This document shows, in pieces, positions 10,017 to 33,843 of a DNA stretch of 64,000 nucleotides. Source of the DNA: Candidatus Algichlamydia australiensis (GTDB lineage Bacteria > Chlamydiota > Chlamydiia > Chlamydiales > JAJFMI01); assembly GCA_033977065.1 (NCBI GenBank), contig JAXCHI010000004.1:92724-156723 (forward strand), given 5' to 3'. Below the pieces are notes generated by a model that saw only the letters and a program-made list of their open reading frames with translations, ran no database searches and was not told the DNA's origin. Within the stretch, counting starts at the first letter, position 1, and the number at the start of each line of letters is the position of its first letter. A program made the translations under genes and the position numbers.

Positions 10017-13000
10017 ATGGGTGTGCGTATGTGGAAGCCAAAAATGCCAAAATTCACCGTCATCACAGGCTGGTGGTTAAGATTGCATCAAGAGAAAAAA
10101 CCTACCCTTATGGGAGCCTGGAAGCGATTTATAAGGCAGATTCCTGCTGATTCGCGCGCTCTTGTAAAAAGTCATAAACATTTCATTGTATTTGGAGGGC
10201 CTAATTCTGGGAAAACAGAGCTCATTCAAGGTTTAATTCAACAAAGTGAGGACCTTTTTCCTTTTGATACAATTTATCATGAGGAGTCGATGATTCAGCT
10301 CTTCTTTGGTCCCAAACAAATTGTTCATGAAATTGAATTTCCGACTTTAGAAGATCGCTCGATTAAGATGCGGAAACAGATCATCCGGTTTTGGAAGAAG
10401 CTATTTCAAAATCGCGATCCAATTGTTGTAATTGTGCAAAATTGGGCAGATGAAGAAACACAAGACACTCACGATTTCAGCCGGTTAGCGCAGTTAATTG
10501 GTGGAAAGCTATCTCTTCTTTCTGAAATTTGTAAAAAACCAATTAAGGTACGGATCAATTTAACTCATCTAGATAAAATTGAGGGTTATCTTGAATTCGC
10601 ACACTATTTAAAACAGCAAGATTTAACTTTTTCTATCCCTTTAACTTCTCGTTTTGCTGTCAATACATTAGAAGAAAAATTCCAAACTTTTGCTGACCAA
10701 CACCTCCCTAACATGCTCACTTCTCTTTCCGATAAAGAATTCATTAAAATCCAACGGTTTTTTAGGGAAGTTCCAAAAGCATTTCCAAAGATCGAGGAGT
10801 TTTTGCGTGCTGTGATAACACGAGTGCGCTCAAAGGGATTTGTCGACTTAGAGATGCTTACCTTTAGCTCGAATAGCGAAGGAAGCACATCACTTGTTCC
10901 TTTTGATTGGAAAAAAGAAGCGGCTGCTGCTATTTTCTTTCGCTATCCAATGCTTAAACATCAAATTGCAGCAGTATTTGTCGCATCTATAATTTGTGGA
11001 TTTACATACAAGCTCTATCACAATGACAAAGAGCATTTGGCATTAGCAAACAGGGGGATTGATTTACTGCGCCGTTGCGAGGTGGCAAAATTTCAAAGAG
11101 AAGTGTTACCAAAATATGCAAAGCTGCTGCACTTTCAAAAACCTTCTCTTTACTCTTACGCGTTACCCAAGTTTTATTTTAAACAAATTTGCAAAGCCGA
11201 AGAGGCGTTGGTTAAACAAATGTATAGGCATATTTTAGAGCCAAATTTTTGCCATATGCTTTTAAAAGAGGAAATAGAGTTTCAGTATATCTACTATCTT
11301 GGCTTGATGTATGCAGTAAAAAGAAATGATGTGGGTTCGTGCTTTATTGAGAATCTTGAAGCCTTTGCTCATCAGATGGATCTCGACCCGAACTTTATAA
11401 AAACCTATATTTTCCTCTCAAAAACTCCAGGTTATCAGCTTGCAAAAGAGAAGACAGTAAAAATTAATCCAAATCTATCACTTACAAGTCTACGTCCTTG
11501 GATTAAGTTTTTAAAGTACTTTGATCGGCTGAATAATGAACCTGTTTTTATGAGTCATAATTTTGAGACTTTGCATTTCGAAGCTGTAAATCTTTTAAAT
11601 ACTCTCGATTATCTACAAAACAATCCTGTAGTTGCATTTGCTTCTGTTTTAGAGGAGGATAAGAATTTTCAGAACGCACCTCCTGAAGAGTTTGAGCATG
11701 TCAAAACAGTTAGTTGGATTTATCAAAATCGACACAAGCTAAAAGAGTTTTTACTTTTCATAAAAAACACCTCAATTGACCTTCCTGATGTGCGTAATCT
11801 TAATATTTCGCAGTTGTTTGCTCAAGTAGATGAGATTCAGAAAATTAATCAAATTCCCGAAACTCTATTTAACTTTATTATTGAGGGAAATTCTTACTCA
11901 TTTTTGTCTAAGAAATGGACAGAACTGACTGTTAACCACAGCGTACAACGCGCTCTACAAGAATTTATCGTTCATAACACCAACTCTGGTGGACGTATCT
12001 TTTTTACAAATTGTGATCAGCCTCTACCTCCAGTAATGACAACTTTTATGGGGCAGTTCCCGCTTATTCGAGAGGATAGAGCTGTACCTGCTAAGTACTC
12101 TCGCATTGCTTTTGAGAAAAATGTTCGTATGACTACAGAAGTTCTCCTAGAAAAAGTTGAAGAGCTACCTCTAGCTAAGGATGAGAAGATTCGCTTTAAT
12201 CACTTTCTTCGCAATGAAGTAGCAAGCTATATCAAAAAATTTCAAGAGCACTACTTAAGTTTTTATCACGCTTGTCAGATCAACACAGAAGGTCTGCAAG
12301 AGATTAAAGGTACTTTGAGAGGGCTATTAAAAACTACAGCACCTTTTTACGATTTTTTACAGTGCTTTCATTATCATAGCGGGGCTTTTTCTCAAGAGAC
12401 TTCCTGCTTAGAGAGTTTTGAAGAGCTCAATCAATTTGCCTTTTTAGCAAATATTTTTGATGTTGAGAATAGAGAAGAGGCACTTGAACCCTACTTTAGA
12501 GTTGTTGCAGATATTCTTAGCGATCTAGAAAGAGACTCTCCTGAAAGCTTAGATAGTTTTCCCTACCTCTCTGCTAACTTGACACCAGCAGCAAATATCG
12601 GCCTGCAAATTTTGCAAAATACGGAAGGGTCTTACCGTAATCAAGTAATTGCCTCTTTAGAAGAGATGGAGATTCCGAAATACTTCCATAAACCTTTTTT
12701 ACAGCCTATTGAGGCCCTTTATAAGGTTGGGCTTATAGAGCTTAAAAAAATCATAGAAGACTTGTGGAGAGAAGAGCTTAGCCCTTCTGTAAATGCACTT
12801 TTTGAAAAATTTCCCTTTGCACTAGACTCTAACAAGATTGCTTCAATTGAAGAAGTTGCAGCAAAACTCAATCCCAAAAGTCAATTATGGCAAAGAGTAC
12901 ACGAACTTATTTCATCTGTTTCGAAGCAAGATGGAGATAGATGGGTATCAAAAGATCCCGAGAACATCAACCTTAATGGGCAAATTTTTAGCTTGTTAAG

Positions 13001-13451
13001 TCGGTTTTCAAAAGCAACAAATGGTTTGTGGGATGAGAAGGGAAATCCTAGAGAGCTTACCTTTAAATTTCGCCCCATACCTTTCTCATATACTGCCAAT
13101 GTAAATCCGTTGCCAATTTGCTCATACATACGTGTTGGAGATAAAATTTTTCGGAATTTCAACCAGGAGTCTGCCACAGAAACCCTCAGGTTCCCTTGGT
13201 GGGAAGAGTTGCCCGCCTGTGTGGGGGTAGAGCTACTTAATAAAAAAACGCGTGTGACATCTCACCGGACTAAAAAAGAAGCGCCTAAGCATTGGAGCTT
13301 TTTTCATGTGCTTAAGCAAGGAAGGCAAGAGAGCAAGAATCTTTGGACGTGGACTTTCCCTAGTGGTCAAGGAGAAGTGCGCGAAGCATCAATATTTTTT
13401 GAAACGTCACCGGATACGCTTTTCAGTTGGGATAGGGAGAGAATAGAATGA
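10017..13451 (+). CDS. tssM: T6SS membrane-complex protein TssM (IcmF family)
   Basis: 1144 aa with a Walker A site in the typical IcmF context (HFIVFGGPNSGKTELIQGL). A single hydrophobic helix lies near residue 320 (IAAVFVASIICGFTY), followed by a long C-terminal region. A 4-nt overlap links it to a downstream TssJ-like lipoprotein gene. The Met at 10029 is a better-spaced start after GAGGA. Confidence 0.8.
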   Translation: MGVRMWKPKMPKFTVITGWWLRLHQEKKPTLMGAWKRFIRQIPADSRALVKSHKHFIVFGGPNSGKTELIQGLIQQSEDLFPFDTIYHEESMIQLFFGPKQIVHEIEFPTLEDRSIKMRKQIIRFWKKLFQNRDPIVVIVQNWADEETQDTHDFSRLAQLIGGKLSLLSEICKKPIKVRINLTHLDKIEGYLEFAHYLKQQDLTFSIPLTSRFAVNTLEEKFQTFADQHLPNMLTSLSDKEFIKIQRFFREVPKAFPKIEEFLRAVITRVRSKGFVDLEMLTFSSNSEGSTSLVPFDWKKEAAAAIFFRYPMLKHQIAAVFVASIICGFTYKLYHNDKEHLALANRGIDLLRRCEVAKFQREVLPKYAKLLHFQKPSLYSYALPKFYFKQICKAEEALVKQMYRHILEPNFCHMLLKEEIEFQYIYYLGLMYAVKRNDVGSCFIENLEAFAHQMDLDPNFIKTYIFLSKTPGYQLAKEKTVKINPNLSLTSLRPWIKFLKYFDRLNNEPVFMSHNFETLHFEAVNLLNTLDYLQNNPVVAFASVLEEDKNFQNAPPEEFEHVKTVSWIYQNRHKLKEFLLFIKNTSIDLPDVRNLNISQLFAQVDEIQKINQIPETLFNFIIEGNSYSFLSKKWTELTVNHSVQRALQEFIVHNTNSGGRIFFTNCDQPLPPVMTTFMGQFPLIREDRAVPAKYSRIAFEKNVRMTTEVLLEKVEELPLAKDEKIRFNHFLRNEVASYIKKFQEHYLSFYHACQINTEGLQEIKGTLRGLLKTTAPFYDFLQCFHYHSGAFSQETSCLESFEELNQFAFLANIFDVENREEALEPYFRVVADILSDLERDSPESLDSFPYLSANLTPAANIGLQILQNTEGSYRNQVIASLEEMEIPKYFHKPFLQPIEALYKVGLIELKKIIEDLWREELSPSVNALFEKFPFALDSNKIASIEEVAAKLNPKSQLWQRVHELISSVSKQDGDRWVSKDPENINLNGQIFSLLSRFSKATNGLWDEKGNPRELTFKFRPIPFSYTANVNPLPICSYIRVGDKIFRNFNQESATETLRFPWWEELPACVGVELLNKKTRVTSHRTKKEAPKHWSFFHVLKQGRQESKNLWTWTFPSGQGEVREASIFFETSPDTLFSWDRERIE

Positions 13452-33017: not shown

Positions 33018-33843
33018 AATACAAAAAAAACTGCAAGAGCAGATCAAACGTTTTGATGTTGGGCCTCTTTTGCAACTTCTCTACACCCTGGGATATACTC
33101 AAGAGGAAGTTCTTTTCGAGTCAAATCCCGATCTCTCATCTAGAGATAGCGTTTGTGAAGAGATCTCTTTTCAGAATGAATTTCCACAAGTAAGGATTTT
33201 GCTTAATCGGGGGCTTTTATCTAATGCTTCTGCCCTTCCCTCTTACTTTCGAAAAAAAATGGATGAGGGGGAGCTAAATAGCCACCTTTTTTCTAGGTTT
33301 CTAAGCTTTTTTGATCACCACTTAGCTGAGCATTCACTTTCAGCTAAGCTGCTTGATCAAGGGGGCGCGTACTTTGATTGGGAAGAGACGCAACAGCACT
33401 ATCTTCGATTCCTTGTATTCAATAGCATTTCTACTATCTGTTTTCTTTTCCAACTTTGTTTTCCAGAACTAGTTATAAAAGTTTTTAAGTCTCCTAAAAT
33501 AATAAAATTAGAGGGATCTTCCTTGATTTTGGGAAAAGCATTTTTGGGTAAATCATATTTAGGAGAGAACTCATACAAAATACTACCTAGTTATGAAGTG
33601 ATGATTTTTAGCGATCAATCACACACAGACTGTGAAATTCCATGGCCGAAAGAGGCGCGTGAAAGACTATTGGAAATAATCTTTCCCTTTTTACACGGAA
33701 TGAACCTATATCTGATTGTAAAAATGATTTTCGAAGATTGTAAAAATCCTATCTATTTAAAGGAAGAGCCAATTTTAGGGTATGGAACGGTTGGTGTAAT
33801 TGAAGGGCCTCTAATAACTCACCTATTTTCCGGAGAAGTTTAA
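33007..33843 (+). CDS. tssG: T6SS baseplate protein TssG
   Basis: 278 aa with TssG-like motifs (FDVGPLLQLLYTLGY...EISFQNEFPQVRILLNRGLLSNASALPSYF...FLSFFDHHL). An 11-nt overlap links it to the upstream barrel-protein gene. Confidence 0.72.
   Translation: MAGKIQKKLQEQIKRFDVGPLLQLLYTLGYTQEEVLFESNPDLSSRDSVCEEISFQNEFPQVRILLNRGLLSNASALPSYFRKKMDEGELNSHLFSRFLSFFDHHLAEHSLSAKLLDQGGAYFDWEETQQHYLRFLVFNSISTICFLFQLCFPELVIKVFKSPKIIKLEGSSLILGKAFLGKSYLGENSYKILPSYEVMIFSDQSHTDCEIPWPKEARERLLEIIFPFLHGMNLYLIVKMIFEDCKNPIYLKEEPILGYGTVGVIEGPLITHLFSGEV

Follow-up and report, generated by a model that had tools for sequence, protein, structure and literature searches.

At positions 10017-33843 of a 64-kb stretch of the chromosome of Candidatus Algichlamydia australiensis (64,000 nucleotides of contig JAXCHI010000004.1, analysed whole and called the window hereafter), we identified what is in all likelihood a genuine and intact type VI secretion system (T6SS) gene cluster, related to the Francisella system known as T6SSii but less derived. 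Profile searches with Pfam and NCBIfam at curated cutoffs, together with PDB sequence searches and AlphaFold2/Foldseek structure comparison, found in it a two-subunit contractile sheath (TssB and TssC), a baseplate set (TssE, TssF, TssK and, more weakly, TssG), an envelope-spanning complex of a TssJ-like lipoprotein, DotU and a weakly matched TssM-like protein, and a VgrG-type spike with a PAAR-like tip, the spike recognised from its structural model and the tip by a DUF4280 profile. A sequence-only reading of this DNA had named twelve Tss components by motif; by profile or structure searches all twelve fell on the right open reading frames (ORFs), with weak or transitive matches in the case of TssM and TssG. 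The Francisella-like accessory set and sheath, the lack of a recognisable Hcp and of ClpV, and the low-GC island edged by an AbiE pair were not part of that reading.

The ORF map of the window resolves the cluster into three compact operon-like units in which every ORF is open. The first runs on the plus strand from tssM to an ankyrin gene (10017-19904), the second on the minus strand from tssB to two small ORFs (29777 down to 19907), and the third on the plus strand through a 461-aa gene, an autotransporter gene and a tssG-like gene (29883-33843). Within each unit, neighbouring genes either overlap or are separated by 3-69 nt, and never by more than 69 nt. The three operons and six ATGA overlaps proposed from the sequence alone were recovered in full, every ORF used in that proposal being present: 4-nt overlaps lie at 13448 and 13861 as ATGA and, for minus-strand genes read on the plus strand as TCAT, at 20107, 25420, 25785 and 29241. 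All 17 large and two small genes are open, with these coupled overlaps retained. The idea of a pseudogenised relic was rejected, all ORFs being intact and conserved in an orthologous cluster (locus L006, below). A terminator-like hairpin lies 3' of tssG (33865-33879). A promoter scan was uninformative, returning 32 promoter-like sites when 40 were expected by chance.

The sheath genes gave firm matches. TssB, the small sheath subunit (29241-29777, minus strand), scores 152 bits against TIGR03358, above the curated cutoff, and matches Pfam VipA; TssC, the large subunit (27724-29244, minus strand), scores 468 bits against TIGR03355, again above the curated cutoff, and matches Pfam VipB and VipB_2. 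When compared with solved structures, TssB is closest to Francisella IglA (94.6 bits, against at most 59 bits for VipA/TssB) and TssC to Francisella IglB (373 bits; the other sheaths reach 283-335 bits). The baseplate adaptor TssK (25785-27035, minus strand) is similarly secure (TIGR03353, 280.7 bits with a cutoff of 100; Pfam T6SS_VasE, 137 bits; PDB TssK 5y0e, E = 1.5e-6). It is followed by a gp25-like sheath initiator, TssE (25420-25788, minus strand; Pfam GPW_gp25, 39.9 bits; TIGR03357, E = 7.8e-9). The baseplate subunit TssF/IglH (20872-22500, minus strand) was recognised by Pfam T6SS_TssF (98.4 bits), NCBIfam T6SS_IglH_TssF (90 bits, cutoff 75) and TIGR03359 (E = 3e-28), and matches only about half of the canonical TssF model. 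In the case of the last baseplate subunit, a 278-aa protein (33007-33843, plus strand), the assignment as TssG/IglJ-like is tentative: its match to NCBIfam T6SS_IglJ reaches E = 2e-4 and 21 bits (cutoff 100), and it is 31% identical (E = 4e-31) to a protein encoded upstream of tssB in a Myxococcota locus (L003) that passes Pfam T6SS_TssG. Its L006 orthologue is 65% identical. Between the genes for TssF and the spike lies that of a 312-aa IglI-family protein (22505-23443, minus strand; NCBIfam IglI_fam, 200.9 bits, cutoff 100) with a weak N-terminal TssA signature (TIGR03362, E = 2e-4; Pfam ImpA_N, E = 1.3e-3), a pattern of matches repeated in the L006 orthologue. In a cluster look-up, the IglI family comprised 456 clusters.

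The membrane complex has three members. A 138-aa IglE-type, TssJ-like outer-membrane lipoprotein (13448-13864, plus strand) passes Pfam IglE_N (48.6 bits, cutoff 26) and matches NCBIfam T6SS_IglE at E = 4e-16 (59 bits, cutoff 75); it carries a signal peptide and the lipobox LLTAC, and its gene is joined to tssM by an ATGA overlap. DotU/TssL is present in a short form (20298-20912, minus strand; Pfam DotU, 54.3 bits; TIGR03349, E = 2.6e-12) with a C-terminal transmembrane (TM) anchor at residues 185-203. The inner-membrane component that resembles TssM/PdpB (1144 aa; 10017-13451, plus strand) matches Pfam IcmF_helical at E = 6.6e-4, below the gathering score, and found no counterpart in PDB or NCBIfam. 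Its residues 60-67 form a Walker A motif, GGPNSGKT, before which there is no hydrophobic hairpin; a single TM-like segment lies at about residues 312-335 and a large C-terminal domain follows. Residues 27-264 are 28-30% identical to the product of the gene downstream of dotU in Myxococcota loci. We regard it with moderate confidence as a divergent TssM; it is the weakest of the core assignments.

The central spike is a single 658-aa protein (23447-25423, minus strand). At the level of sequence it matched nothing in Pfam, NCBIfam or PDB, whether by phmmer or with a 16-sequence profile against PDB. Its AlphaFold2 model (pLDDT 72.6) shows confident N-terminal domains followed by a run of short C-terminal strands, and its best Foldseek match is Francisella PdpA (6u9e_A, E = 3e-19); later matches include the spikes of extracellular contractile injection systems (eCIS), Pseudomonas aeruginosa VgrG1 and Salmonella VgrS, the whole set spanning E = 3e-19 to 5e-11. 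A related locus in a Myxococcales metagenome-assembled genome (MAG; L003, 13833-16130, plus strand) helps in reading this model. There, the spike is encoded by two in-frame ORFs with one stop codon between them; the first gives a PdpA-like hub of 563 aa, and the second a protein of 199 aa with a match to the Francisella VgrG model (E = 3e-8). Because this 199-aa protein aligns with the C-terminus of the 658-aa spike, the latter is predicted to be a PdpA/gp27-like hub fused to a VgrG-like beta-strand needle. The spike tip is a 109-aa DUF4280 PAAR-like protein, an analogue of IglG without a toxin extension (15511-15840, plus strand; Pfam DUF4280, 33.5 bits, cutoff 26.3).

For the tube, gene position offers a candidate. 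A 213-aa protein is encoded between tssC and tssK (27013-27654, minus strand), and every related locus has a gene of 185-202 aa in this place. The tube-position family numbers at least 274 proteins, many from Myxococcota, and the protein in the window joins it weakly; its AlphaFold2 model is all-beta and poor (pLDDT 48.6). Francisella iglC presumably lies between iglB and iglD, which would be the same place, and we consider on the position of its gene that the 213-aa protein is probably the tube (Hcp/IglC). An orthology table for the Francisella T6SS is available (PMC5924787). The recycling ATPase ClpV is not encoded in the window, where the sole Clp ATPase (1752-4328, minus strand), outside the island and 5.7 kb upstream of the cluster, scores higher as ClpB (TIGR03346, 1198.7 bits) than as ClpV (TIGR03345, 842 bits). 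In Francisella, it is ClpB that recycles the sheath, and IglG is the PAAR-like tip (PMC5924787). By analogy, ClpB is a candidate sheath recycler that would replace ClpV.

A spike of this kind could also belong to a free particle, and the alternative of an eCIS or phage-tail-like device of the Amoebophilus T6SSiv or Afp/PVC kind, not anchored in a membrane, draws on the matches of the model to the eCIS spikes of Anabaena, Algoriphagus and PVC (E = 1e-13 to 1e-15) as well as on the lack of ClpV. We judge it extremely improbable. The separate TssB and TssC, TssK, and DotU together with the IglE-type lipoprotein and the TssM-like protein are hallmarks of an anchored T6SS that eCIS lack (PMC9600919), and the Pfam and NCBIfam scans found no tape-measure, tail-fibre, Afp-type sheath or Afp-type tube family. 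The T6SSiv of Amoebophilus asiaticus is a functional parallel, being a contractile machine of an obligate intracellular symbiont of protists, where it helps in escape from the phagosome. That system is Afp/phage-like and has neither TssJ, TssL and TssM nor TssK (PMC9600919), whereas the window cluster has them, and the two show no close sequence relationship.

Having a membrane-anchored T6SS as the preferred reading, we placed the cluster among the known types by ranking its similarity to solved structures. It shares with Francisella T6SSii the IglE-type lipoprotein, the IglI family, an IglH-type TssF, a weakly IglJ-type TssG and a DUF4280/IglG-type tip. Among these components specific to the Francisella pathogenicity island, IglI and IglH/TssF pass the NCBIfam cutoffs; IglE and IglJ fall below them, though IglE passes Pfam IglE_N. 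In addition, IglA and IglB are the closest solved sheath subunits and PdpA the closest spike hub by structure, the 64-kb window encodes ClpB and no ClpV, and the producer lives inside eukaryotic cells. Gene order appears to agree as well: tssB-tssC-X-tssK parallels what we take to be the iglA-B-C-D order of Francisella, and tssM-iglE-X-DUF4280 what we take to be pdpB-iglE-(vgrG)-iglF-iglG.

Other features separate the window from the Francisella system. Its TssB, TssC and TssK pass the canonical T6SS equivalog cutoffs, whereas the IglA/IglB-type sheath of T6SSii is rarely matched by T6SSi profiles (Abby 2016), so that the chlamydial TssB and TssC look intermediate between IglA/IglB and the canonical type. 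A clear TssE/gp25 is encoded in the window, whereas a 2018 review of Francisella lists the TssE of the island as unidentified (PMC5924787). The spike is one fused ORF, as opposed to PdpA and a 164-aa VgrG in Francisella; TssM keeps its Walker A motif; a search of every island ORF against NCBIfam and Pfam gave no PdpC, PdpD, PdpE or AnmK; and an adenylate-forming (ANL-like) enzyme, the 461-aa protein and the autotransporter are extra conserved genes. With the canonical T6SSi of Vibrio cholerae, P. aeruginosa and enteroaggregative Escherichia coli, on the other hand, the cluster shares TssB/C, TssE/F/G/K, TssJ/L/M, a TssA-like N-terminal domain, and a spike and tip. It differs from these systems in that none of the Hcp, VgrG, PAAR or ClpV families was detected when its ORFs were scanned with Pfam and NCBIfam, and in that the lipoprotein is IglE-type. 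Canonical TssM has an N-terminal TM hairpin, a cytoplasmic NTPase, a third TM segment and a periplasmic domain, whereas here the P-loop lies at the extreme N-terminus and there is one TM-like segment. Taken together, these comparisons suggest a hybrid in which Francisella-type accessory genes and sheath are combined with canonical TssE, TssK and TssM Walker A features. We would describe it as a less-derived variant related to T6SSii. Because the canonical TssB, TssC and TssK models are passed, and because of TssE, the Walker A motif, the unsplit spike and the conserved extra genes, we do not file it as a member of T6SSii. The host phylum, Chlamydiota, is a further difference: papers published between 2016 and 2026 describe T6SSii as confined to Francisella, with one Dongshaea genome added in 2026.

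The closest relatives of the cluster are chlamydial. When the TssC protein was searched against species-representative genomes, the matches were a Parachlamydia sp. MAG (67% identity), Simkaniaceae bacterium BWSM_113 (65%), a Myxococcales MAG (52%) and a Polyangia MAG (51%). Homologues of the spike form 15 clusters at 35-55% identity, with proteins of MAGs labelled 'Chlamydiales bacterium' (ChlgKO) and 'Verrucomicrobia bacterium' among them; the TssC of the Verrucomicrobia-labelled MAG shares 80% identity with that of Parachlamydia. The MAGs that have an orthologous T6SS cluster carry the labels Parachlamydia, Simkaniaceae, Chlamydiales and, in one case, Verrucomicrobia. The most complete comparison is with ChlgKO (L006), which has all of the window components in the same order at 44-77% identity, including the 461-aa gene, the autotransporter, the TssG-like protein, IglI and the ANL-like protein; the exception is its ankyrin protein, with a partial match at 24%. 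TssC is 66-80% identical among the chlamydial loci and 53-60% between chlamydial and Myxococcota loci; for TssK, the corresponding values are 42-64% and 27-30%.

The Myxococcota clusters, in the Myxococcales MAG (L003) and the Polyangia MAG (L004), are the nearest relatives outside the chlamydiae and are uncharacterised. They have the same order of genes, namely tssG-like, tssB, tssC, a small tube-position gene, tssK, tssE, spike, tssF, dotU and tssM, and share the tube-position family, further members of which come from Sorangium, Polyangium, Archangium, Hyalangium and Paraliomyxa. They differ in several respects: the L003 spike is split (563 aa and 199 aa) whereas the chlamydial spike is fused, a division that mirrors the one in Francisella; the 21-kb loci yielded no homologue of IglI, and ANL-like, autotransporter and 461-aa genes were not seen in them either; and their GC content is 57-71%.

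For the system to be chlamydial, the contig itself has to be sound. Identical proteins in NCBI (SNF33_06080 and SNF33_06095) come from the MAG of Candidatus Algichlamydia australiensis, where they lie on a 497-kb contig. This organism, a member of the Simkaniaceae, lives in single-cell inclusions as a symbiont of the dinoflagellate Cladocopium and has a genome of 1.8 Mb with 42.1% G+C; the MAG was assembled from 10x long reads and then polished, with 2253x short-read coverage (PMC11317633). To the left of the island lie ClpB, two major facilitator superfamily (MFS) transporters and a Ca/Na antiporter; to the right follow malQ, a CesT chaperone, CopN/SctW, SctV, SctU, YchF, IF-2, NusA, RpsA and AccC. 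We take the order malQ-CesT-CopN-SctV-SctU-YchF...IF-2-NusA-RpsA to be that of Chlamydia trachomatis. The T6SS island therefore sits between clpB/transporter genes and the malQ-scc1-copN-cdsV-cdsU block of the type III secretion system (T3SS), and the earlier view of a chlamydial genome next to T3SS genes is borne out both by the flanking gene order and by the NCBI names of the identical proteins. A second, independent adjacency of the two systems is found in the Simkaniaceae MAG BWSM_113 (L002), where the genes for a T3SS ATPase, for a C-ring protein of the FliN type and for a SpoIIE-domain Ser/Thr kinase (913-7443, plus strand) are directly followed by the T6SS. Presumably, these correspond to the chlamydial cdsN-cdsQ-pkn5 block.

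The sequence-only reading had named a chimera at about 6.9 or 33.9 kb as a way in which the locus might mislead, and an assembly or binning artefact, in which a T6SS fragment of another bacterium from the Cladocopium culture had become attached to chlamydial DNA and the chlamydia itself had no T6SS, would find some encouragement in the origin of the MAG from polished 10x long reads, in the GC steps at about 7.0 and 33.9 kb and in the mobile-type AbiE module at one edge. However, a single short-read contig from the independent Logan assembly (SRR26803925_3177, 59.9 kb) carries ClpB, MFS, AbiE, the complete T6SS, the tetratricopeptide repeat (TPR) protein, malQ and CopN together, with both suspected points inside it; the 2253x short-read coverage argues in the same direction. 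For every component, the nearest homologues come from other chlamydial MAGs, with the full gene set in L006; in another of these MAGs, the cluster adjoins cdsN-cdsQ; and other accessory genes of the window, encoding a leucine-rich repeat (LRR) and a DUF4116 protein, have equally low G+C at third codon positions (GC3). A joining of this kind is very improbable. Since one short-read contig spans both junctions and since orthologous clusters are present in four other chlamydial MAGs, a chimera is unlikely and the T6SS cluster is taken to belong to the chlamydial chromosome.

The island stands out in its composition. It is a low-GC segment of about 27 kb (7.0-33.8 kb), with a GC content of 38.4% compared with 43.8% for the remainder of the window and GC3 values of 0.24-0.39 compared with 0.36-0.53 in most flanking genes. 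The fall at about 7.0 kb is sharp, and GC rises again at about 33.9 kb. Placed exactly at the drop in GC and GC3, and so forming the left edge of the island, is a type IV toxin-antitoxin (abortive-infection) pair (7032-8685, plus strand), an AbiEi antitoxin with an AbiEii nucleotidyltransferase toxin (Pfam AbiEii, 135.5 bits; AbiEi_1, AbiEi_4). Because of its lower GC and the AbiE module, the island looks horizontally acquired. No tRNA that might have served as an integration site is encoded in the 64-kb window. An island acquired recently and now silent or decaying, without current function, would be in keeping with the atypical composition, the addiction module at its edge, the absence of ClpV or a recognisable Hcp, and a tip that is without the toxin domain present in its closest orthologue. 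Even so, we consider decay improbable, given that all 17 large and two small genes are open with coupled overlaps, that the Walker A motif, the lipobox and the DotU TM anchor are intact, and that the L006 orthologues, at 44-77% identity, retain the same order and lengths, a conservation that points to long-term purifying selection within the chlamydiae.

For an intact system, the question of what it delivers leads to the genes that accompany the conserved core. The last gene of the tssM operon, which starts 38 nt 3' of the PAAR-like tip gene, encodes a 1341-aa ankyrin-repeat protein (15879-19904, plus strand; Pfam Ank_2, 151.6 bits, in four stretches), and we infer that this is the most likely cargo or effector in Algichlamydia. 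In L006, a 980-aa ankyrin protein adjoins the cluster and matches part of that in the window (24%). Ankyrin repeats are also found in the OpiB effectors of Francisella. The OpiB proteins are secreted by the Francisella T6SS (PMC5924787). The presence of ankyrin repeats in the gene next to the tip suggests a eukaryotic target, for example the inclusion membrane or the host cytosol, which we favour slightly over a bacterial one.

A real machine that acts mainly against bacteria, either co-resident symbionts or bacteria on the host surface, with host manipulation not its principal role, is the alternative that the related clusters bring to mind. In L006 (19673-20479, minus strand) the DUF4280 tip orthologue carries a C-terminal GIY-YIG nuclease domain, and in L007 (1-687, minus strand) a C-terminal Tox-REase-9 nuclease domain; the small genes downstream of these nuclease-tipped proteins include one for a DUF2251 protein in both loci, and L007 has a phage-lysozyme-like gene beside tssB. 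Fusions of tip and toxin (PAAR-toxin) with small genes downstream are typical of interbacterial T6SS cargo, and these sets in chlamydial MAGs look like interbacterial toxin/immunity modules. Further encouragement comes from chlamydial cells seen both within the alga and on its cell wall (PMC11317633). In the window, however, the DUF4280 protein ends at 109 aa without a toxin domain and the next gene encodes the 1341-aa ankyrin protein, so the effector module has evidently been exchanged between chlamydial lineages. Moreover, Pfam and NCBIfam scans of the island ORFs revealed neither a recognisable nuclease, amidase or lipase nor an immunity pair, the host phagosome is what the closest characterised system, that of the Francisella island, acts upon (PMC5924787), and single-cell inclusions should make meetings with other bacteria rare. 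A mainly antibacterial role in Algichlamydia therefore seems rather unlikely to us.

The conserved parts list would imply the following mode of action. The sheath would assemble on a baseplate docked to the membrane complex, and its contraction would drive the tube, the spike and the cargo out of the cell. The housekeeping ClpB, which we propose as recycler because no ClpV is encoded in the window, would then recycle the sheath as it does in Francisella. The cargo would be the 1341-aa ankyrin protein encoded right after the tip gene.

Several observations weigh against this account as a whole. The 213-aa protein in the tube position matched neither Hcp nor IglC by sequence, profile or fold, and the negative results for Hcp and ClpV cover the 64 kb of the window, so that a gene for either may lie elsewhere in the genome. 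The assignments of TssM and TssG draw on sub-threshold or transitive matches. If the island was acquired horizontally, function of the T6SS in its present host is not guaranteed, and the electron micrographs of the genome paper are not reported to show sheaths (PMC11317633). As for what is delivered, the ankyrin protein is named as cargo from the position of its gene, and the nuclease-tipped DUF4280 proteins and the lysozyme-like gene of the relatives point to bacterial targets.

In the full-text literature that we searched, in which subscription journals were mostly outside the scope, no paper was found that describes a T6SS in Chlamydiae. For Algichlamydia itself, the genome paper gives the secretion machinery as a T3SS and a plasmid-borne type IV secretion system, and the terms 'T6SS', 'type VI', 'sheath' and 'contractile' are absent from its text (PMC11317633). 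As a biological finding, the T6SS of Algichlamydia thus appears to be undescribed; automated GenBank annotation probably names TssB and TssC already. Present in at least five chlamydial lineages, such a contractile machine represents a second possible delivery route, and raises questions about entry, about rupture of the inclusion and exit, and about competition among symbionts inside protists and algae. The chlamydial and Myxococcota systems could also help in assigning orphan proteins of the Francisella island and in showing the origin of that virulence system. A wider scenario, which we offer as possible more than as likely, is that chlamydiae hold their own clade of an unrecognised T6SS lineage, held in common with Myxococcota and standing as a less-derived sister or ancestor-like form to Francisella T6SSii. 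In Algichlamydia it would deliver the ankyrin protein into the alga independently of the T3SS, for example to breach or remodel the single-cell inclusion during entry or exit, and sister chlamydiae would use nuclease tips against competing bacteria. If this were true, the lineage would link IglI with TssA, IglH with TssF, IglJ with TssG, and PdpA plus VgrG with a full-length VgrG, and would supply a TssE, which has yet to be recognised in Francisella.

The remaining genes of the cluster are less easily given a part in the machine. In the first unit, a 548-aa protein (13861-15507, plus strand) appears to be a divergent adenylate-forming enzyme of the ANL/acyl-CoA synthetase kind: it scores 28.8 bits against Pfam AMP-binding, just below the cutoff, and its residues 66-170 and 428-517 each match the corresponding domain in structures of ANL ligases (best E = 8.6e-7), the strongest match being that of the C-terminal region to acetyl-CoA synthetase. 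Its gene is coupled to iglE by the ATGA overlap, has a 57% identical orthologue beside the T6SS in L006 and occupies what we take to be the position of IglF in the Francisella island. A homologue of ANL-family enzymes within a T6SS operon is unusual. In the third unit, divergent from tssB, the conserved 461-aa protein (29883-31268, plus strand), with orthologues beside the cluster in L006 (44%) and L002 (29%), has a C-terminal pair of glycine-rich hydrophobic segments (TM-like, residues 366-408) and a marginal match to the BTH_I2691 family (E = 0.008); it is a candidate membrane-active effector or structural part. The 560-aa autotransporter beta-barrel protein that follows (31335-33017, plus strand; Pfam Autotransporter, 61.8 bits) has a signal peptide and a coiled-coil-rich passenger, its gene overlaps the tssG-like gene by 11 nt, and a 44% identical orthologue has the same position in L006; any part of it in the T6SS would be conjectural. 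The long minus-strand operon ends with two small ORFs (19907-20292, minus strand) that overlap at 20107, one at 20107-20292 (61 aa) and one at 19907-20110 (67 aa). They match no family; both were also called as genes in the Logan assembly, and a 60-aa gene stands at the same place in L006. Also within the island, a 386-aa protein encoded divergently from tssM (8682-9842, minus strand; GC3 0.235) has a marginal match to Pfam Ank_4 only (E = 0.0065).

Three further genes in the window were seen outside the island. Between the T6SS island and malQ, a 522-aa protein (33955-35523, minus strand) combines a transglutaminase-like core with TPR repeats, which bear a weak likeness to T3SS chaperones of the SycD/LcrH class. 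A 287-aa LRR protein (39285-40148, minus strand), inserted between copN and cdsV, resembles the LRR region of the Xanthomonas effectors XopAC/XopL and has a GC3 of 0.34, low as in the island genes. Finally, a 1064-aa protein with DUF4116 repeats (45653-48847, plus strand), located between ychF and the ribF-truB-infB block, forms a second low-GC patch (GC 0.376, GC3 0.28).

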